Shown here in pieces: positions 38,101 to 50,100 of a stretch of DNA of 64,000 bases. The position numbers were made by a program. The first letter of the stretch is position 1; the number at the start of each line of letters is the position of its first letter. Source of the DNA: an uncultured Nitrospiraceae bacterium (GTDB lineage: Bacteria > Nitrospirota > Thermodesulfovibrionia > Thermodesulfovibrionales > Dissulfurispiraceae); contig CAVSHF010000005.1 in NCBI GenBank assembly GCA_963727805.1, forward strand, positions 832,001 through 896,000. Reading direction: 5' to 3'.

Positions 38101-41100
38101 AGAAAGTGTGCCTTTATCGTATCTGCAATCTTTGGCGGAGATCATTTCCCTGAATGAGGAGCCGTATTCACCGGTCGGATGGAGTAAATGCGGTAGCTGT
38201 GGATATAACGAACTATGTTGGACACGCGCTTCTGATCAAAGGGATGTCGCTTTGGTATACGAGCTTGATCAAAACCTCGCCAAGCGTTTGCGCGAACTAG
38301 GTGTTTTGACAATAGAGCAACTCGTTGGTCGATATAATGAGCCAACACTGTCAGAACTCAAGAGGCCTTGGGGGGCCCGAGAACAAAAGGTTGGGAAAAA
38401 AGCAGAAAGGATACTTTTACAGTCAAGAGCAATGATCGCTAAGAAAGAAATTATCCTTAAAAAGCCTGCGATCCCGATATCAAAGAATTATGCCATGTTC
38501 GATCTTGAGGGGCTCCCTCCGCAATTGGATGAACTCGACAAGATTTACCTGTGGGGCGTTCAGGTATTCGGTGAAATGCCGAGTCCCTTCCTTCATTCTC
38601 TTGCAAATATTGGATCGGAAGGCGACAGGCAGGGATGGGAGGATTTCCTGATGATCGCTAAATCGATTTTCTCAACTTATGGAGTTATTCCCTTTGTACA
38701 CTGGGCGCCATATGAGAAAACCAAAATAAAGATTTATATGGAACGATACGGCGATATCGAGGGGCTAGCTGAGAAGGTCCTCTCCAACCTGGTCGATCTA
38801 TTGCCAATTACACGCGAGGCAGTCGTAATCCCCGAACCGAGCTATAGTCTGAAAGTTGTCGAGAAGTACGTCGGATTCAAGCGGACACAAGATGAGTACG
38901 GTGGCGATTGGTCAATCGCCAAATATATTGAAGCGGTGGAAACGGATGATGAAAATAAGAGAAAATCGCTTATCAATGAGATCTTAAAATATAACGAAGA
39001 AGATCTTCAGGCTACTTGGGCAGTGTTTGATTGGTTGAAAACTCTTTAAGTAATTTACATGCTCAATTGCTGAAAAGCTCGCATTTATAAAACAGGTGTA
39101 CAATTACCCAATAAGGTAAATGCTCATCTCAGTTTTGAAGCATACATTTTTTTAACTACCCTGCTTATGAAGCTATTCAATCCTCTTCCCTCAATAGCTA
39201 ACCGTTTCATTTGCTCAATATTGTTGTTGCCAGCACTGTGGTAGTTGTACAGATAAAGAGACCCATCTTTAAATTGAACTTTTATAAAGTCGACTCCAAT
39301 TTCATAAGCAATAACTCCCGAATCGCCTCCAAGATTCTTGTAACTGTCCATAATTATCTCCATTCTGGTTTGATGTTTAAGAATCTAAATATCACTATTA
39401 TGTAGCATGCTTATTGTTTCGAGACTAGCATATTGATTAAATAATTACAACTGTTAGTCAAACAACTAGTCAAAAGGGCGATGCAATATTAATCAAACTC
39501 ATACCGCCACAGGGATAGTAAGTGTCGCGGAAGAACAACGACTTAAACTCAGATGTCTCATTCAGCTTTAAGACAACCTCAGAAGGTGGCGAGCTGCGGC
39601 CATCATATATTGAACGGTCGGCTTCCATCGAAATTACTGGTCCGCATCATCTTTATAAGAACGCGCTGATACTAATAATCCCCTCCAGCCCTAATTTATA
39701 ATGTCATATATGACATTATAATAATATATATGATATAATTAATTATAATATGGAATATAAATGTTATATTCGACAAAAGGCTTAAAGATGGCAAAGATCG
39801 AGTGGACCGAAATCACCAAGGGACTCATTAAATCACAGTTGGCGCTGAGAAATATTTCTTACCTAGAGTTGTCAAGGAAACTGGACAAGATCGGTGTAAC
39901 GGAAACGCCACAGAGCATAAACAGCAAACTTAATAGGGGTAGTTTTCCCGCAACATTCTTTATTCAATGCTTGAGAGCTATCGGATGTAAGTTAACGATC
40001 AAATGTAAAGGGGATGATCTCTATGAATAGAACCGCGAATTTTAACAAATAGAAGAGTTGGAAGCTCAATAAAGGTATGTTCACATGGCTTTAGATAGGG
40101 AAAGTCATCAAAAAGGAGACTATATCATGAAAAAAAGTATGATCGAGCTGACTACAGTACCTTCAAGTAAGAAGAACATCGAAGAATCAGTGTGCGAAAC
40201 ATCTGAGATTCGCTTTTATCGGGCAAATGAGAAACTCTATGGTGCCTTTAGCAATCTCTATCGCAGGAATATTCTTTTTGAGGGGCGGGTGTATCCTTCA
40301 GCTGAGCACGCTTACCAAGCAGGGAAAGCTAGAAAGGAAGCTGTAAGAGAATGGATATTGAGTGCGCCTTCTCCCGCCCTAGTGGCAATGGCGGCTCATG
40401 GACTTTACACTTGGGATATTGTGCCCAATTGGGCTGCTATTAAATTTGAACGTATGCAACAGGTACTGCATGCCAAATTTACTCAACACGATGACCTCTG
40501 TGAATTGCTGCTTTCTACTGGCGATGCGCGACTTGTTGAAGCGGGTACGGTCGATAGTCCTATTAACCGGCTATGGGGCGAAGTAAACGGTAAGGGTCAG
40601 AACATGTTGGGTGTCCTATTAATGAAATTGAGAGTAGCACTACAGAGCGAACTCGCTTTCCAAAAGGACATAACAAAGTGTAGAATTAACAATCTCAGAG
40701 TAATTGGAAGACAGGACACTATTTGTGTAGGGGAATAACATTCTAATTTTTTCTCTAATTGACTAACAAAGTCGTGGGAAAGCCTTATCAATCAGAACTA
40801 AACAAGCTACCCGAGACTTATCGTTGGGCAGTGTCACAAAGTATTGCCCCCCTTGTAAAAGCAATAAAGACATCAGCACATCTTCCTCTGATAGCAGTAG
40901 GGTCTGGTGGCTCGCTGTCTGCTGCCGAAGTTATGGTGTCGTGCCATGAACATTATTTTGGTGGTATTGCTCGGTCGGTCACGCCTTTGGAACTCATATC
41001 AGCGCTCCCTGCAAATGGACATGCATCTGTTTGGTTCTTCACCGCAAGCGGAGGGAATATAGACATTCAAAGAGCTTTCGAGCATACTCTGCTATTAGAG

Positions 41101-47100: not shown

Positions 47101-50100
47101 GGCTTAACGGGGATCCCTCATCGATACGTGTAAAAGACGATATGTCTCGATGGGATGTGAGCCTTGCTTTTGCTAAGCAGTCTCCGACTGCTACTACACC
47201 TATTATTGCTCAGCAAAACTATCGTGATAAAGGCGGAGATGCGACCCATAAATTTGCTTTTACCTGTCCGATGTGTGGTGCGTCATTACCTTTTTACAAG
47301 GCAGTTCCAAATATTGCAGCGAAGCGCATTGCTGAGCAAATAGAGAATCCTCACGTATTCTTTTTCGATAGAGTATCGGTTAGTGCGCTAACCTTAGCGA
47401 AAAGGTGTAAAGAACTCGGAGCGGTTATTTTCTTTGAACCATCTGCTAAAGGTGACCCCAAGCAATTCTCGGAGGCGGTACAGTTGGCTCATGTCATTAA
47501 GTACTCGCAAGAACGTTTTAGTTTTTTTGTTGACGAGTATAAATCGGCTGGAGAATTGCCCTTCATAGAGATTCAAACGATGGGACGGGAAGGATTAATA
47601 TTTCGTTCAAGTCTGCCTAATGCGAAATCAGAGGAATGGACAAAGCTACCGGCAACGGCTGTAGAACAGGTCGAAGATACGTGTGGTTGCGGTGACTGGA
47701 CCACTGCTGGCCTTATATCGAAATTGTGTGATGTTGAAGGAGTAGAAGGGCTTAAAACAAAGTCTTTGAAAGATATTATGCGTGCTTTGAATTTTGGACA
47801 GGCTCTAGCTTCTTGGAATTGCAGGTTTGTGGGAGCTCGGGGCGGAATGTATCGAGTTGACAGGAGAAGATTTGAAAGAGAAATATCGGAAATTACCAAT
47901 GAGAGTGTCCAAATGACAAGAACGCATACGAAGAAATTATACGATGAGACACCAATGAGAATGATTTGTCCATCCTGCTGCGGAACCTAATTAAGTGAAA
48001 GGCCCGCAACATTTTAAGATTTCAATACCCAATTTCAGCAAGATCGCGAATCGGATTTATTTGTCCTTCCAGATAGTTTCTGAGGACATCCTCTTTTTGT
48101 TCAGTATAGTCTTTCAATATTGAATAAGATGTGATATCTACTGCCTTATAGAACATATCATAGTTACCACTAAGACTGGTTGTCCAAGGGGCGGGATAGG
48201 ACATTTTCGTGTAGATTTCCGAAGATAAAATTGATGCCAGCCATTTACACTGAAAATTATCTTTACCTTTATTCAAGATGTAATCAATATTAAGATCCTC
48301 AGAAAGCTTTCGAGACTTCTTCTTATCGGGCTTTGTCAGGATGACATTGAGAGATTCTATTCCTAGCTCTGCTAATTTCCTGCAAAGGGAAACTAAGCCT
48401 TCATTGAAACCAAAATGAGGATATCCTACGAAATGTTTACCATAAGAGGGACTTTTTTGTTTGACATCGCAAGCATACAATTTATCCTTGTGCTCAATAA
48501 AAAAGTCCACATCATATCTGAATCGGAATAGTTCAGCAAATAATCTGCTTAAAGCGATCTCTTTAATAAGATTAATCTTGGTACGGTTATACTGGATTAA
48601 GACCCTAACAAGCTTCTCCCATCTTTTATTATCTTCCTTTTCTTCCACTGGGGCTTTTTCTTTCCACCATCCACCAGTCAGTTTCTTTTTATTCTTAAGC
48701 CAACGATTATTGATTTCGGGAATATCAGATTGCGATATGGTCAAACAATCAAAGGACTTTTCTGCTTCATTGAAAGAAACTAAAAACACCCTAACTTGTC
48801 TGTTCAGAAAATGCACAAATAGTTTTATATCTAAATCTGTTACTAAGTTATCAGGATTTGATAGCTTATATGCCTCCCCGACACATTGATCCGGAAACCA
48901 CCAATTAGATGAATAAGACAAAGAAGAATCCGATAAAATATCCTTTGCGAATGCCCTTTCAATCAATATTCCTTCTATTCTCTCTACTTTGTTATGTCTG
49001 AATGTGCCAATCAATTTGTTCACATCGTTAAAGTCAATGGATTCAAGAAGCACGTCTTGATTTAACCACTTTGTCATTATTACCTCCTTCTACCACCAAG
49101 ACATTAGCGGATCACAGTCACGGCTATTCTCATCAGCTTATTTCGTGCGAATATATATTAATCTCTATACACGCACTTCTGAACCTAATTCCATCATAGC
49201 AGTAGCGTATATAATTGGCGAAACTTTTTGTATAGGATATATTCTCATGCATATCACAATTATTAATTGTCCATTGTATCACACCAAGACTGGAAGATAA
49301 ATTATGATGAATACGCCCGTGGCACACGAAATCACAATAAGTGATGAAGATGATTCAGGTTATGAGACAAAATTTTCCGGAGTTCATAATAAATCTTGAC
49401 AAAGTGCGATCATCTGGGTAAAATCTGGTATAAATAATACCCAGAGGTAATAATGCCGCAAATTCACATTAAGTTGGACAAGGCGACACACGAAAGATTG
49501 AGCAAAAAAGCTCGAGAGTTCAACTTTAGCATCCAGGAATTCGCCGAAAGGGCCCTGTCGCTGGCGGTTGACAACCCGCTTGAAACCATTTTCTCCTCCA
49601 AAAATAATGAAGACAGTAATTCAGAGACTTTGTTTACATTTATCGACCTGTTTGCCGGGATTGGAGGGATACGCTTGGCACTGGAACAGAATAAAGGGAA
49701 ATGTATTTTTTCTTCAGAATGGGACAGGTGGTCACAAAAGACATACTTTGACAACTTCGGAGAAATGCCTGCAGGAGACATTAATGAAGTTCGGTTGAAG
49801 GAGATTCCCGATCATGACATCCTATCAGCTGGATTTCCTTGCCAGCCCTTCTCTATAGCTGGAGTCTCCAAGAAAAAAAGTCTCGGGAAAGAACACGGCT
49901 TCAAGGATAAAACTCAAGGGACACTTTTTTTCAAAGTCGCCGAAATTATCGAGGCCAAGCGACCCAAGGCGTTCCTGCTCGAAAATGTTAAACACCTGAG
50001 AAATCACGACAGGGGGCAGACCTTCGCAATCATCGAGGGTACTCTCCGGGAACTCGGATATACTATTGTCCATGATATAGTCAACGCTGCTCACTATGTC

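Follow-up and report, generated by a model that had tools for sequence, protein, structure and literature searches.

The window is a 64,000 bp stretch of DNA from an uncultured Nitrospiraceae bacterium. Five co-directional open reading frames, genes A to E, occupy positions 40759-47990 of its + strand. Gene A (40759..42711; 650 aa) is a fusion of double-SIS and HAD-IIB regions, recognised by Pfam Hydrolase_3 (7e-8) and by fold. Gene B (42714..43874; 386 aa) encodes a PRTase-CE protein (Pfam PRTase-CE 2e-23; PADLOC PRTase_III-A 6e-19). Gene C (43881..45821; 646 aa) specifies an ORC/CDC6-like AAA+ ATPase (Pfam ORC-CDC6-like 8e-8), gene D (45824..46921; 365 aa) a tandem-CARF 'CARF6' protein (PADLOC CARF6 3.7e-100; fold) and gene E (46914..47990; 358 aa) a PfkB-family kinase (Pfam PfkB 5e-10). 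Gaps between successive genes are 2, 6, 2 and -8 bp. A gene for a NADAR protein, of the ribosyl N-glycosidase family (40127..40738, + strand; Pfam NADAR 4e-25), ends 20 bp 5' of gene A. The initial annotation had described five tightly packed genes here; all five were recovered at the same positions and the earlier Pfam and PADLOC assignments were reproduced. The real start of gene A may lie a few codons downstream of 40759. The longest possible ORF for gene D begins at 45704, within gene C.

The cassette is cargo of a 44,716 bp element with TG…CA ends and a 5 bp duplication. The left end (21945..22016, + strand) comprises the ACATG duplication (21945-21949), a terminal TGTCATT from 21950 and three ATAACTTAAC repeats. 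This 10-mer occurs 7 times across the 3.9-Mb genome. The right end falls outside the window, at window-equivalent 66665 (G000:C5:898665), and is followed by ACATG. Insertion split a host gene encoding a SAM-dependent methyltransferase. The 3' part lies at 21671..21949 (- strand) and the 5' part beyond the right end; Pfam Methyltransf matches both halves, which are in frame and amount to 209 codons plus a stop. The - strand encodes TniQ (61695..62975; Pfam 9e-26), the TnsC-like ATPase TniB (62921..63826; Pfam 1e-64) and the 3' end of a TnsB-like DDE transposase (63823..64000). The latter ORF, of 685 aa and with an NCBIfam transposase match, runs to window-equivalent 65880. TnsA is outside the window (window-equivalent 65778-66425; NCBIfam TnsA-like; Pfam TnsA N and C). 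Together, the TG...CA ends, repeated transposase sites, 5 bp duplication and TnsA, TnsB, TniB and TniQ genes identify the element as Tn7-like. With both ends located, the cargo status proposed earlier is confirmed.

Of the 112 homologous loci whose flanks were long enough, 109 held all five genes (71/74 and 38/38 in two deep clades). The recurrence of orthologues reported previously also held in a fresh set of 80 GTDB loci. Here, genes A, B, C and E were found in 73, 77, 80 and 80 loci, the complete set of five in 73 and colinear order in 68. Gene order in the cassette is movable, and catalytic motifs are near-invariant across homologues. The initial annotation had also noted a PRTase-ATPase fusion at one locus (L025). 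The sole case of genes B and C as a single ORF among our 80 loci, L048, which may or may not be L025, is a 1 bp frameshift; the gene B C-terminal motifs and stop run on in the next frame. The cassette occurs in only ~1% of sampled genomes. Gene D was found in 3 of 301 genomes of its own phylum, Nitrospirota, and as full-length matches in 5 of 401 Pseudomonadota and 2 of 301 Bacteroidota genomes, seeds included. Besides the transposon described above, 19 plasmids and 2 viral contigs carry the cassette.

Flanking proteins matched PADLOC models more often than control proteins (20/119 versus 6/87, p=0.036). Counted per locus, the enrichment was 13/32 versus 2/16 (p=0.057), and loci are not independent. 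The commonest flank clusters are mostly resolvases, integrases, transposases and plasmid genes. The mobile cassette is probably an anti-phage defence. The earlier reading is supported in that five genes form a conserved and mobile unit in a defence context, with an ORC-like NTPase and a PRTase/kinase/phosphatase module that acts on small molecules. It is improbable that the cassette is instead a mobile metabolic or stress module, under ATPase and CARF control, that repairs glycation or ribosylation, salvages nucleosides or runs a small-molecule pathway. SIS and PfkB proteins are a catabolic pair in frl/fra operons, genes A and E are conserved in the manner of metabolic enzymes and 99 of the 119 flanking proteins had no PADLOC match at 1e-20. 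However, no conserved transporter or pathway neighbour was detected, no flank cluster recurring in more than 6 of the 80 loci. The patchy distribution, the mobile-element genes and a core common to methylase/effector cassettes, described below, likewise argue against such a role.

Gene B scores 83.9 bits against a Pfam PRTase-CE cut-off of 27. The PRPP-binding loop, LIDDFTASGT, is intact, and residues D201, N349, P351, N352, R377 and R380 are each conserved in 81/81 homologues. Also present is a G-x14-PNN motif, as described for the PRTase of Retron-Eco11, a toxic effector that lowers PRPP and brings about abortive infection with PRPP loss (PMC12746101). We infer that gene B is the effector of the cassette. 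Gene C, the predicted switch, scores 31.9 bits for PF24389 (cut-off 27). Its Walker A (G55/K56) and Walker B (D241) residues are conserved in 89/89 homologues; median identity between the two clades is just 21.6%. In fold comparisons, the AF2 model of gene D (pLDDT 93) best matched Can1 (Z 14.8; 232 aligned, rmsd 3.2), followed by Can2 (Z 12.1). Residues D41, R43, D131 and S133 are conserved in 120/120 homologues and K306 in 117/120; the pocket, with D131-x-S133 and S301...K306, is conserved. The CARF strand-4 signature (PMC4012209) is partly kept. The type III CRISPR effectors Can1, Can2 and Card1 share the tandem-CARF fold but carry a nuclease domain that gene D lacks. Of the best 150 gene D representatives, 149 are at most 400 aa, and no 691-2000 aa form was seen among 8000 candidates, itself weak evidence. 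Gene D is predicted to be a stand-alone tandem CARF, free of any effector domain, that senses a nucleotide-type ligand. The initial annotation called it a tandem-Rossmann 'CARF6' protein. The protein is a true tandem CARF and would form a sensing core with the ATPase.

We surveyed 17 related loci, from which all cassette-family features given here are drawn. The gene before the ATPase encodes PRTase-CE (7), HD-CE (5), a metallophosphoesterase (2) or a fused kinase (3). The conflict effector names PRTase-CE and HD-CE reportedly come from Nicastro et al. 2023 (NAR 51:11479). The PRTase occupies an interchangeable effector slot. In 2 of the 17 loci, a single polypeptide contains both the ATPase and the CARF-like domain. 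Gene D matches the gene 3' of the ATPase in methylase cassettes (hhalign probability 98.3). Cassettes combining an effector (PF24390 PRTase-CE, PF24391 HD-CE, metallophosphoesterase or kinase) with PF24389 and CARF6 are catalogued, and have the same effector-ATPase-CARF-like order. They differ in that a DNA methylase is present in 14/17 related loci, and gene A or E in 0/17, whereas SIS-HAD and PfkB are obligatory, and the NADAR dedicated, in the five-gene form. Six cassette methylases used as queries had no match in 174 five-gene loci, many of them with short flanks. The C5 methylase in the window, at 49453, comes with a Vsr and an EcoRII-like nuclease of its own, and an opposite-strand gene separates it from the cassette. 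In the ATPase tree, 27 five-gene rows and 17 related rows are separated by a long, fully supported branch (100/100). Because the ordered core recurs, the five-gene cassette is not wholly new. An ORC/CDC6-like ATPase and tandem-CARF core with an upstream nucleotide-targeting effector is an already-known arrangement, and the five-gene form is its methylase-free subtype. The earlier claim of an undescribed system survives for the five-gene form, not found described as far as our literature search reached, but not for the wider family, parts of which are already in Pfam and PADLOC.

The SIS part of gene A spans residues ~6-342 and the HAD-IIB phosphatase or phosphomutase part residues ~391-637. 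The SIS assignment, left open in the initial annotation, was settled by fold comparison of an AF2 model (pLDDT 94), which places it in the GlmS-isomerase/GlcN6P-deaminase/AgaS/FrlB class (VIA Z 29.7-23). GlmS and deaminase structures score 28-29.7, FrlB 23.0 and FraB 19.3, all at 10-16% identity; the HAD part scores 18.2 to an alpha-phosphoglucomutase. K231, E234 and H250 align gap-free with GlmS K485, E488 and H504, and the GlmS C-tail Lys is absent. E234, H250, D398, D400, K559, D581 and D589 are each conserved in 81/81 homologues. The SIS Glu and His are 16 residues apart, like FraB E214/H230, a spacing common to isomerases (GlmS-type included), deaminases and deglycases. Gene E, a zinc-motif kinase, carries two conserved CxxC motifs, at 118/121 and 352/355. 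Among solved structures, ketohexokinase and fructokinases are nearest to it (E 1e-11 to 1e-9). G41, N46, D255, G258, G260 and D261 are conserved in 108/108 homologues and the cysteines in 102-106/108. A double-SIS protein with this Glu/His spacing and a sugar kinase are common to the cassette and frlBD/fraBD. FraD is itself a PfkB-family protein. The fraB/fraD arrangement is a pair of SIS deglycase and kinase (PMC4941530). In contrast to those operons, the cassette has a fused HAD, CxxC motifs and a mobile defence setting, and lacks the transporter.

The initial annotation correctly placed a NADAR gene before the cassette, but the gene is not a mere neighbour. Of 174 other cassette loci, 8 have a member of the subfamily, every copy being 62-74% identical; among 301 Pseudomonadota genomes, 2 have one, and each of these carries the cassette. 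All nine plasmids with a copy of at least 68% identity have gene D within about 6 kb. The genome sample holds three copies, one of which is not near any cassette. Since all nine plasmids carry the cassette, the NADAR is a dedicated, optional sixth member. Pairwise distances of genes B, C and D correlate at 0.85-0.89, and cross-module distances at 0.41-0.52. The trees of the five genes mostly agree with one another, with 16-24 supported splits in common and 0-6 in conflict. Hence, the contrast between modules chiefly reflects a single long B-C-D branch and not frequent swapping. On one plasmid, a single NADAR-A-E block lies beside two B-C-D triplets from different clades. This fits coupling through a diffusible substrate.

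We tentatively propose an abortive-infection mechanism with two modules. The ATPase and tandem CARF would sense infection, through foreign DNA and/or a ligand of nucleotide type, and would activate gene B. The PRTase would transfer ribose-5-phosphate from PRPP to an amine acceptor, speculatively a nucleotide, nucleic acid or protein; PRPP consumption would drain nucleotide synthesis and poison the cell. Genes A and E, with the optional NADAR, would be a second module in place of the DNA methylase. This module would process the N-linked ribose-phosphate adduct, most probably by removing what forms at a basal level, which would spare the uninfected host. Speculatively, hydrolysis of the intact N-riboside would fall to the NADAR, and release of the Amadori-rearranged ribulosamine-phosphate, in the manner of FrlB/FraB deglycases, to the SIS domain; PfkB would re-phosphorylate adducts stripped of phosphate and the HAD would handle the freed sugar phosphate. 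Conceivably, though doubtfully, phosphoribosylation of a nucleobase or other amine might be a reversible toxic mark, the PRPP-dependent counterpart of DarT ADP-ribosylation. It would be gated by the ORC-like ATPase and a CARF sensor for a ligand other than cyclic oligoadenylate, and have its own eraser kit of N-glycosidase, Amadori deglycase, ketosamine kinase and phosphatase from glycation-repair chemistry.

Consistent with the two-module mechanism are the retention of all five genes in both clades, patchy spread, mobile carriage, flank PADLOC enrichment and the effector slot of the 17 related loci. The Retron-Eco11 PRTase, the SIS Glu/His pair, the fraB/fraD pair, the B-C-D distance correlation and the NADAR-A-E plasmid block also point this way, as do the tracking of the cassette by NADAR and the roles of NADARs as ribosyl N-glycosidases and antitoxins (PMC9503650; PMC11125620). 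Several observations count against it. The PRPP fall of ~50% with Retron-Eco11 (PMC12746101) would likewise follow from plain hydrolysis, and the 7 related PRTase-CE cassettes occur without A, E or NADAR. NADAR is scarce among cassette loci and has one cassette-free copy. The SIS residues are not deglycase-specific, FrlB and FraB rank below GlmS-type structures, per-locus defence enrichment is weak and the module contrast has its main source in a single branch of otherwise largely congruent gene trees.

The pairing of kinase and phosphatase is also odd for a pure eraser. In one alternative, A and E would be co-effectors. Once B had turned PRPP or nucleotides into ribose-phosphates, kinase, isomerase and phosphatase would run a futile cycle that burns ATP or would produce a toxic sugar-phosphate. 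The cassette retains A and E as strictly as the core, and PRPP depletion is the known outcome for a PRTase of the gene B type. The HAD of PUA-Cal-HAD is a co-effector required for defence (bioRxiv 10.64898/2026.01.15.699771), which counts against an eraser, and in Salmonella a kinase that lacks its partner deglycase produces a bacteriostatic sugar-phosphate (PMC4941530). However, A and E would have to be silent before infection, with no physical tie to the core and a movable order, and known NADAR roles are in damage control. We consider co-effectors unlikely.

Alternatively, A and E could make or clear the tandem-CARF ligand, B still being the effector. The sugar kinase, isomerase and phosphomutase-like HAD would provide a self sugar-phosphate or nucleotide-sugar that keeps C-D-B off, or would turn a phage product into the trigger, taking over the methylase's self/non-self role. 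The mutual exclusion of methylase and A/E, including the six unmatched methylase queries, favours this, as do the single A/E block beside two different cores and the HAD's nearest relative, an alpha-phosphoglucomutase. Also in its favour, the gene D pocket is conserved while no cyclic-oligonucleotide synthase was found among the five genes or conserved neighbours. Against it, the operon lacks any nucleotidyltransferase or cyclase that could make a CARF-type ligand, and NADAR linkage is explained less directly. Divergence between clades is also greater for gene D (29%) than for A and E (38%), which is unexpected for a constant ligand. Such a role seems rather unlikely.

The cassette has partial parallels elsewhere. 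Retron type III-A3 (Retron-Eco11) has a PRTase effector with a PRPP loop and G-x14-PNN motif, as in gene B, and its loss of PRPP during abortive infection serves as the model for the predicted role of B. Type III-A retrons have a reverse transcriptase, whereas control here would be by ATPase and CARF; no RT family appeared in the scanned ORFs of the window or in any conserved neighbour. The toxin-antitoxin pairs DarT1-NADAR and YarT-YbiA (PMC11125620) resemble the cassette in that a putative ribosyl-transferring toxin has a dedicated NADAR next to it, but use NAD+, whereas the cassette transferase would use PRPP. No ADP-ribosyltransferase partner was found, the five genes belonging to other families and having no conserved extra neighbour. 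PUA-Calcineurin-CE-HAD (bioRxiv 10.64898/2026.01.15.699771) is alike in its HAD co-enzyme and nucleotide-pool attack, and ShosTA (PMC11961720) in its PRTase toxin. Sensors and partners differ in both; in their accessible portions, neither paper names a comparable partner, be it an SIS, PfkB, ORC-like ATPase or CARF protein.

Cassettes of the effector-ORC-CARF kind are widespread, and our literature search, as far as it reached, found none characterised. In the subtype described here, named sugar-phosphate enzymes stand in for the methylase, together with an N-glycosidase dedicated to the cassette, which points to a specific chemistry. The exchange hints at ribose-phosphate being attached to, then stripped off, a target. 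If the second module does act as an eraser, this would be a new reversible modification in bacterial immunity, and would tie defence to glycation repair.

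The five open reading frames of the cassette occupy 40759-47990 on the plus strand and encode a double-SIS protein with a HAD domain (A), a PRTase-CE protein (B), an ORC/CDC6-like ATPase (C), a tandem-CARF 'CARF6' protein (D) and a PfkB kinase (E). A NADAR gene (40127-40738, plus strand) lies 20 bp upstream of A. These positions agree with the initial annotation, and all six genes lie on the same strand, separated by -8 to 20 bp. Above-cut-off Pfam matches were to HAD, PRTase-CE, ORC-CDC6-like and PfkB, and PADLOC matched B to PRTase_III-A and D to CARF6. A DUF6471 gene (39710-40030), on the same strand, precedes NADAR, and ahead of this DUF6471 gene stands the region's best sigma-70-like match (11/12). 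Counts did not exceed shuffled sequence for promoter-like matches (28 vs 21.2 ± 5.4) or terminators (10 vs 7.7 ± 2.5).

The annotation had also placed the cassette in a Tn7-like transposon. Minus-strand genes for TnsA, a TnsB-like transposase, TniB and TniQ occupy 61695 onwards and extend slightly beyond the window end. The element begins with TGTCATT at 21950 and ends with AATGACA at window-equivalent 66665; ACATG flanks both ends, and ATAACTTAAC sites are repeated within. It spans 44,716 bp, has a GC content of 43% (47.7% for the contig) and splits a SAM-methyltransferase gene whose two parts are in frame. Hence, with defined ends, ACATG flanks and an interrupted gene, the cassette is cargo of this element. 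A lookalike of the left end and target flank, possibly a relic end, lies about 340 bp within the element (22284-22310). Other cargo (22377-39049 and 48022-61209) comprises two Rhs genes, a transglycosylase, an AbiV-like HEPN protein, a metallophosphoesterase, DUF6765, a TM0106-type nuclease, a C5-methylase/Vsr/EcoRII-like set and LexA-like and HD genes. Four cargo reading frames have no family assignment (32337-34037, 35473-36348, 48022-49077 and 51845-53341).

Scanning genomes with the D protein alone found no relatives; an alignment of D retrieved 228 from GTDB species genomes, and the 80 best were carried forward. Here C, D and E were present in 80/80 loci, B in 77/80 and A in 73/80. All five genes occurred in 73/80, colinear in 68, and in 71 of the 74 with sufficient flank; five Acidobacteria loci had the order E-A-B-C-D. 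Carriers that are cultured and non-pathogenic include Geobacter hydrogenophilus (L007) and Neptuniibacter (L010). One locus had been described as carrying B and C in a single reading frame. The sole such case in the 80-locus set (L048) proved to be a frameshift, not a true fusion. We built a second alignment on distant D proteins and fetched 80 of 510 metagenome loci, with 24-40% (D) and 19-45% (C) identity to the window proteins. The five genes were complete in 38/38 of these loci with room, and also in four more carriers chosen from genome samples. A dCTP-deaminase/dUTPase-like gene sits immediately ahead of B in seven related metagenome loci (L110, L111, L115, L116, L118, L119 and L121; for example L115:3648-4268). 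The D family is large, with 821 clusters at 50% identity, and patchy, occurring in 3/301 genomes of its own phylum, Nitrospirota. Full-length matches were found in 5/401 Pseudomonadota and 2/301 Bacteroidota genomes, seed genomes included, and D is present on 19 of 72,556 plasmids and 2 viral contigs. Elsewhere in Nitrospirota a single clade-1-like copy was found (L003 / L201; G207:C1, near 667 kb), and its D has an internal stop.

Pairwise distances over 53 loci divide the cassette into two modules. Correlations were 0.85-0.89 among B, C and D, 0.64 between A and E, and 0.41-0.52 across modules; resampled intervals did not overlap. The five gene trees are mostly congruent, and their topology gives no support to frequent swapping of A and E between cores. 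All five move as a unit, and B-C-D bear a long branch between two deep clades that is missing from A and E. The order B-C-D was constant in all arrangements seen; the positions of A and E vary. Plasmid NZ_CP117256.1 (L226:15986-30259) carries a single NADAR-A-E block and two B-C-D triplets that are only 24-37% identical to each other. The clade-2 triplet comes after the block, then a patatin gene on the opposite strand, then the clade-1 triplet.

Searching with PF24389 gave 8 carriers among 301 Pseudomonadota genomes and 13 among 301 Bacteroidota genomes. These yielded two five-gene loci, two partial matches that were omitted (G364, G720) and 17 other loci, which were read. The gene preceding the ATPase was PRTase-CE in 7 of the 17, HD-CE in 5, a metallophosphoesterase in 2 and a fused kinase in 3. 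The gene following it aligned with D in 15/17 (probability 98.3); the remaining two encode ATPase and CARF-like domain as one polypeptide. A DNA methylase was adjacent in 14/17, and A and E were absent from all 17. From this make-up it follows that ATPase plus CARF is a core common to the five-gene and methylase cassettes, that B fills an interchangeable effector slot, and that A and E occupy the place usually taken by the methylase. Six of these methylases, used as queries, had no relative in 174 five-gene loci. In an ATPase tree (27 vs 17 rows; midpoint-drawn) a long, fully supported branch sets the five-gene ATPases apart. Among the small sample of methylase cassettes (L206-L222), the methylase is of C5 type in all 5 HD-CE loci and of amino (N6/N4) type in 6/7 PRTase-CE loci. 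DruA takes the methylase position in L220. L221:6399-10052 and L222:6060-9767 each encode kinase, ATPase and CARF-like parts in one protein of about 1,220 aa, and L221 also has a glycosyl-transferase-family-3 gene upstream.

The initial annotation called the system undescribed. Full-text literature searches turned up no account of the five genes together, although Nicastro 2023 and Makarova 2020 (text, supplements) may list them. Nor do passages of PMC13712802, PMC12839542, PMC4012209, bioRxiv 10.64898/2026.10.19.760177 and PMC13092281 describe this form. The five-gene form is apparently new, and the wider kind of cassette to which it belongs is already catalogued, with a function that is apparently no more than predicted.

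B retains the PRPP loop and G-x14-PNN motif of Retron-Eco11, activation of which halves PRPP (PMC12746101). Walker A and Walker B are retained in C. The predicted structure of D (pLDDT 93) is a tandem CARF without an effector domain, best matched by Can1 (Z 14.8). The CARF matches were preferred to a Foldseek placement with USP/CCC C-terminal domains (TM 0.2-0.3, rmsd about 18). A and E might make or clear the CARF ligand, which we consider unlikely. E belongs to the PfkB kinases, with ketose kinases as its closest relatives, and bears two CxxC motifs. Searches of solved structures by sequence gave nothing useful for B, C or D, NCBIfam held no model for these three, and for D the ESM Atlas returned nothing beyond 'hypothetical protein', for E a generic PfkB label.

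The SIS and HAD make-up proposed for A was recovered by fold comparison of its predicted structure (pLDDT 94). The SIS part belongs, with Z 29.7 to 23, to the double-SIS class that takes in GlmS-isomerase, glucosamine-6-phosphate deaminase, AgaS and FrlB; the HAD-IIB domain is nearest to an alpha-phosphoglucomutase (Z 18.2). In hhalign, A gave no alignment of note with the genome's own GlmS (probability 0.4); residues were matched by motif position and fold. K231, E234 and H250 align gap-free with GlmS K485, E488 and H504, which have catalytic roles in GlmS; the C-tail lysine of GlmS is not retained. FraB uses E214 and H230, at a spacing equal to that of E234 and H250 (PMC12359202). Named key residues of the cassette are kept in 94-100% of rows in both clades, save K231 of A (68/81) and D200 of B (75/81). 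A and E would, on another and still less likely account, be co-effectors; the HAD of PUA-Cal-HAD offers a precedent (bioRxiv 10.64898/2026.01.15.699771).

NADAR is optional (8/174 loci). Cassette NADARs form one subfamily, with 62-74% identity even where D is at 23-32%, and the DS32 NADAR model (NCBIfam) scored 58 against a cut-off of 240. Two of 301 Pseudomonadota genomes have the subfamily, both carrying the cassette; of their three copies, two are next to E and the third is at another place. Every one of the 9 plasmids that have a copy of at least 68% identity has D within about 6 kb; the two plasmids whose copies are at 47-49% do not belong to the D carriers. Known NADARs act as ribosyl N-glycosidases and as antitoxins (PMC9503650, PMC11125620).

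We examined the two nearest 200-1200 aa proteins on each side of 32 loci (PADLOC, 1e-20), with 87 proteins of sixteen 10-kb regions as control. Matches were found for 20/119 flank and 6/87 control proteins (p=0.036), or 18 and 2 once partial and generic-domain matches were removed by eye (p=0.002). Counted per locus, the figures were 13/32 and 2/16 (p=0.057). This enrichment supports a defence setting, only moderately because related loci are not independent. Recurrent neighbours are mostly mobile-element genes. Rhizobial loci L036, L041, L059 and L073 have an opposite-strand patatin-like phospholipase gene directly after E (for example L073:12406-14019), and genes matching DISARM drmB and drmC models precede the E-A-B-C-D cassettes of Acidobacteria loci L013, L015, L016 and L018. 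A metabolic role for the cassette appears improbable.

N-phosphoribosyl amines rearrange by the Amadori route (TrpF, HisA). The most coherent role for A, E and NADAR is processing of such an adduct. Briefly, B, under ATPase/CARF control, would make an N-linked ribose-phosphate adduct to be processed by the other three. NADAR, as an N-glycosidase, would cleave the intact bond; A and E, as deglycase and kinase, would handle the Amadori product. In this they resemble fraB/fraD, a deglycase and kinase pair acting on an Amadori product (PMC4941530). Taken whole, this model of a PRTase effector with adduct processing is tentative, falling somewhat short of even odds. That B is an effector controlled by the ATPase and CARF proteins is probable, and we have good confidence that the cassette is an abortive-infection defence.
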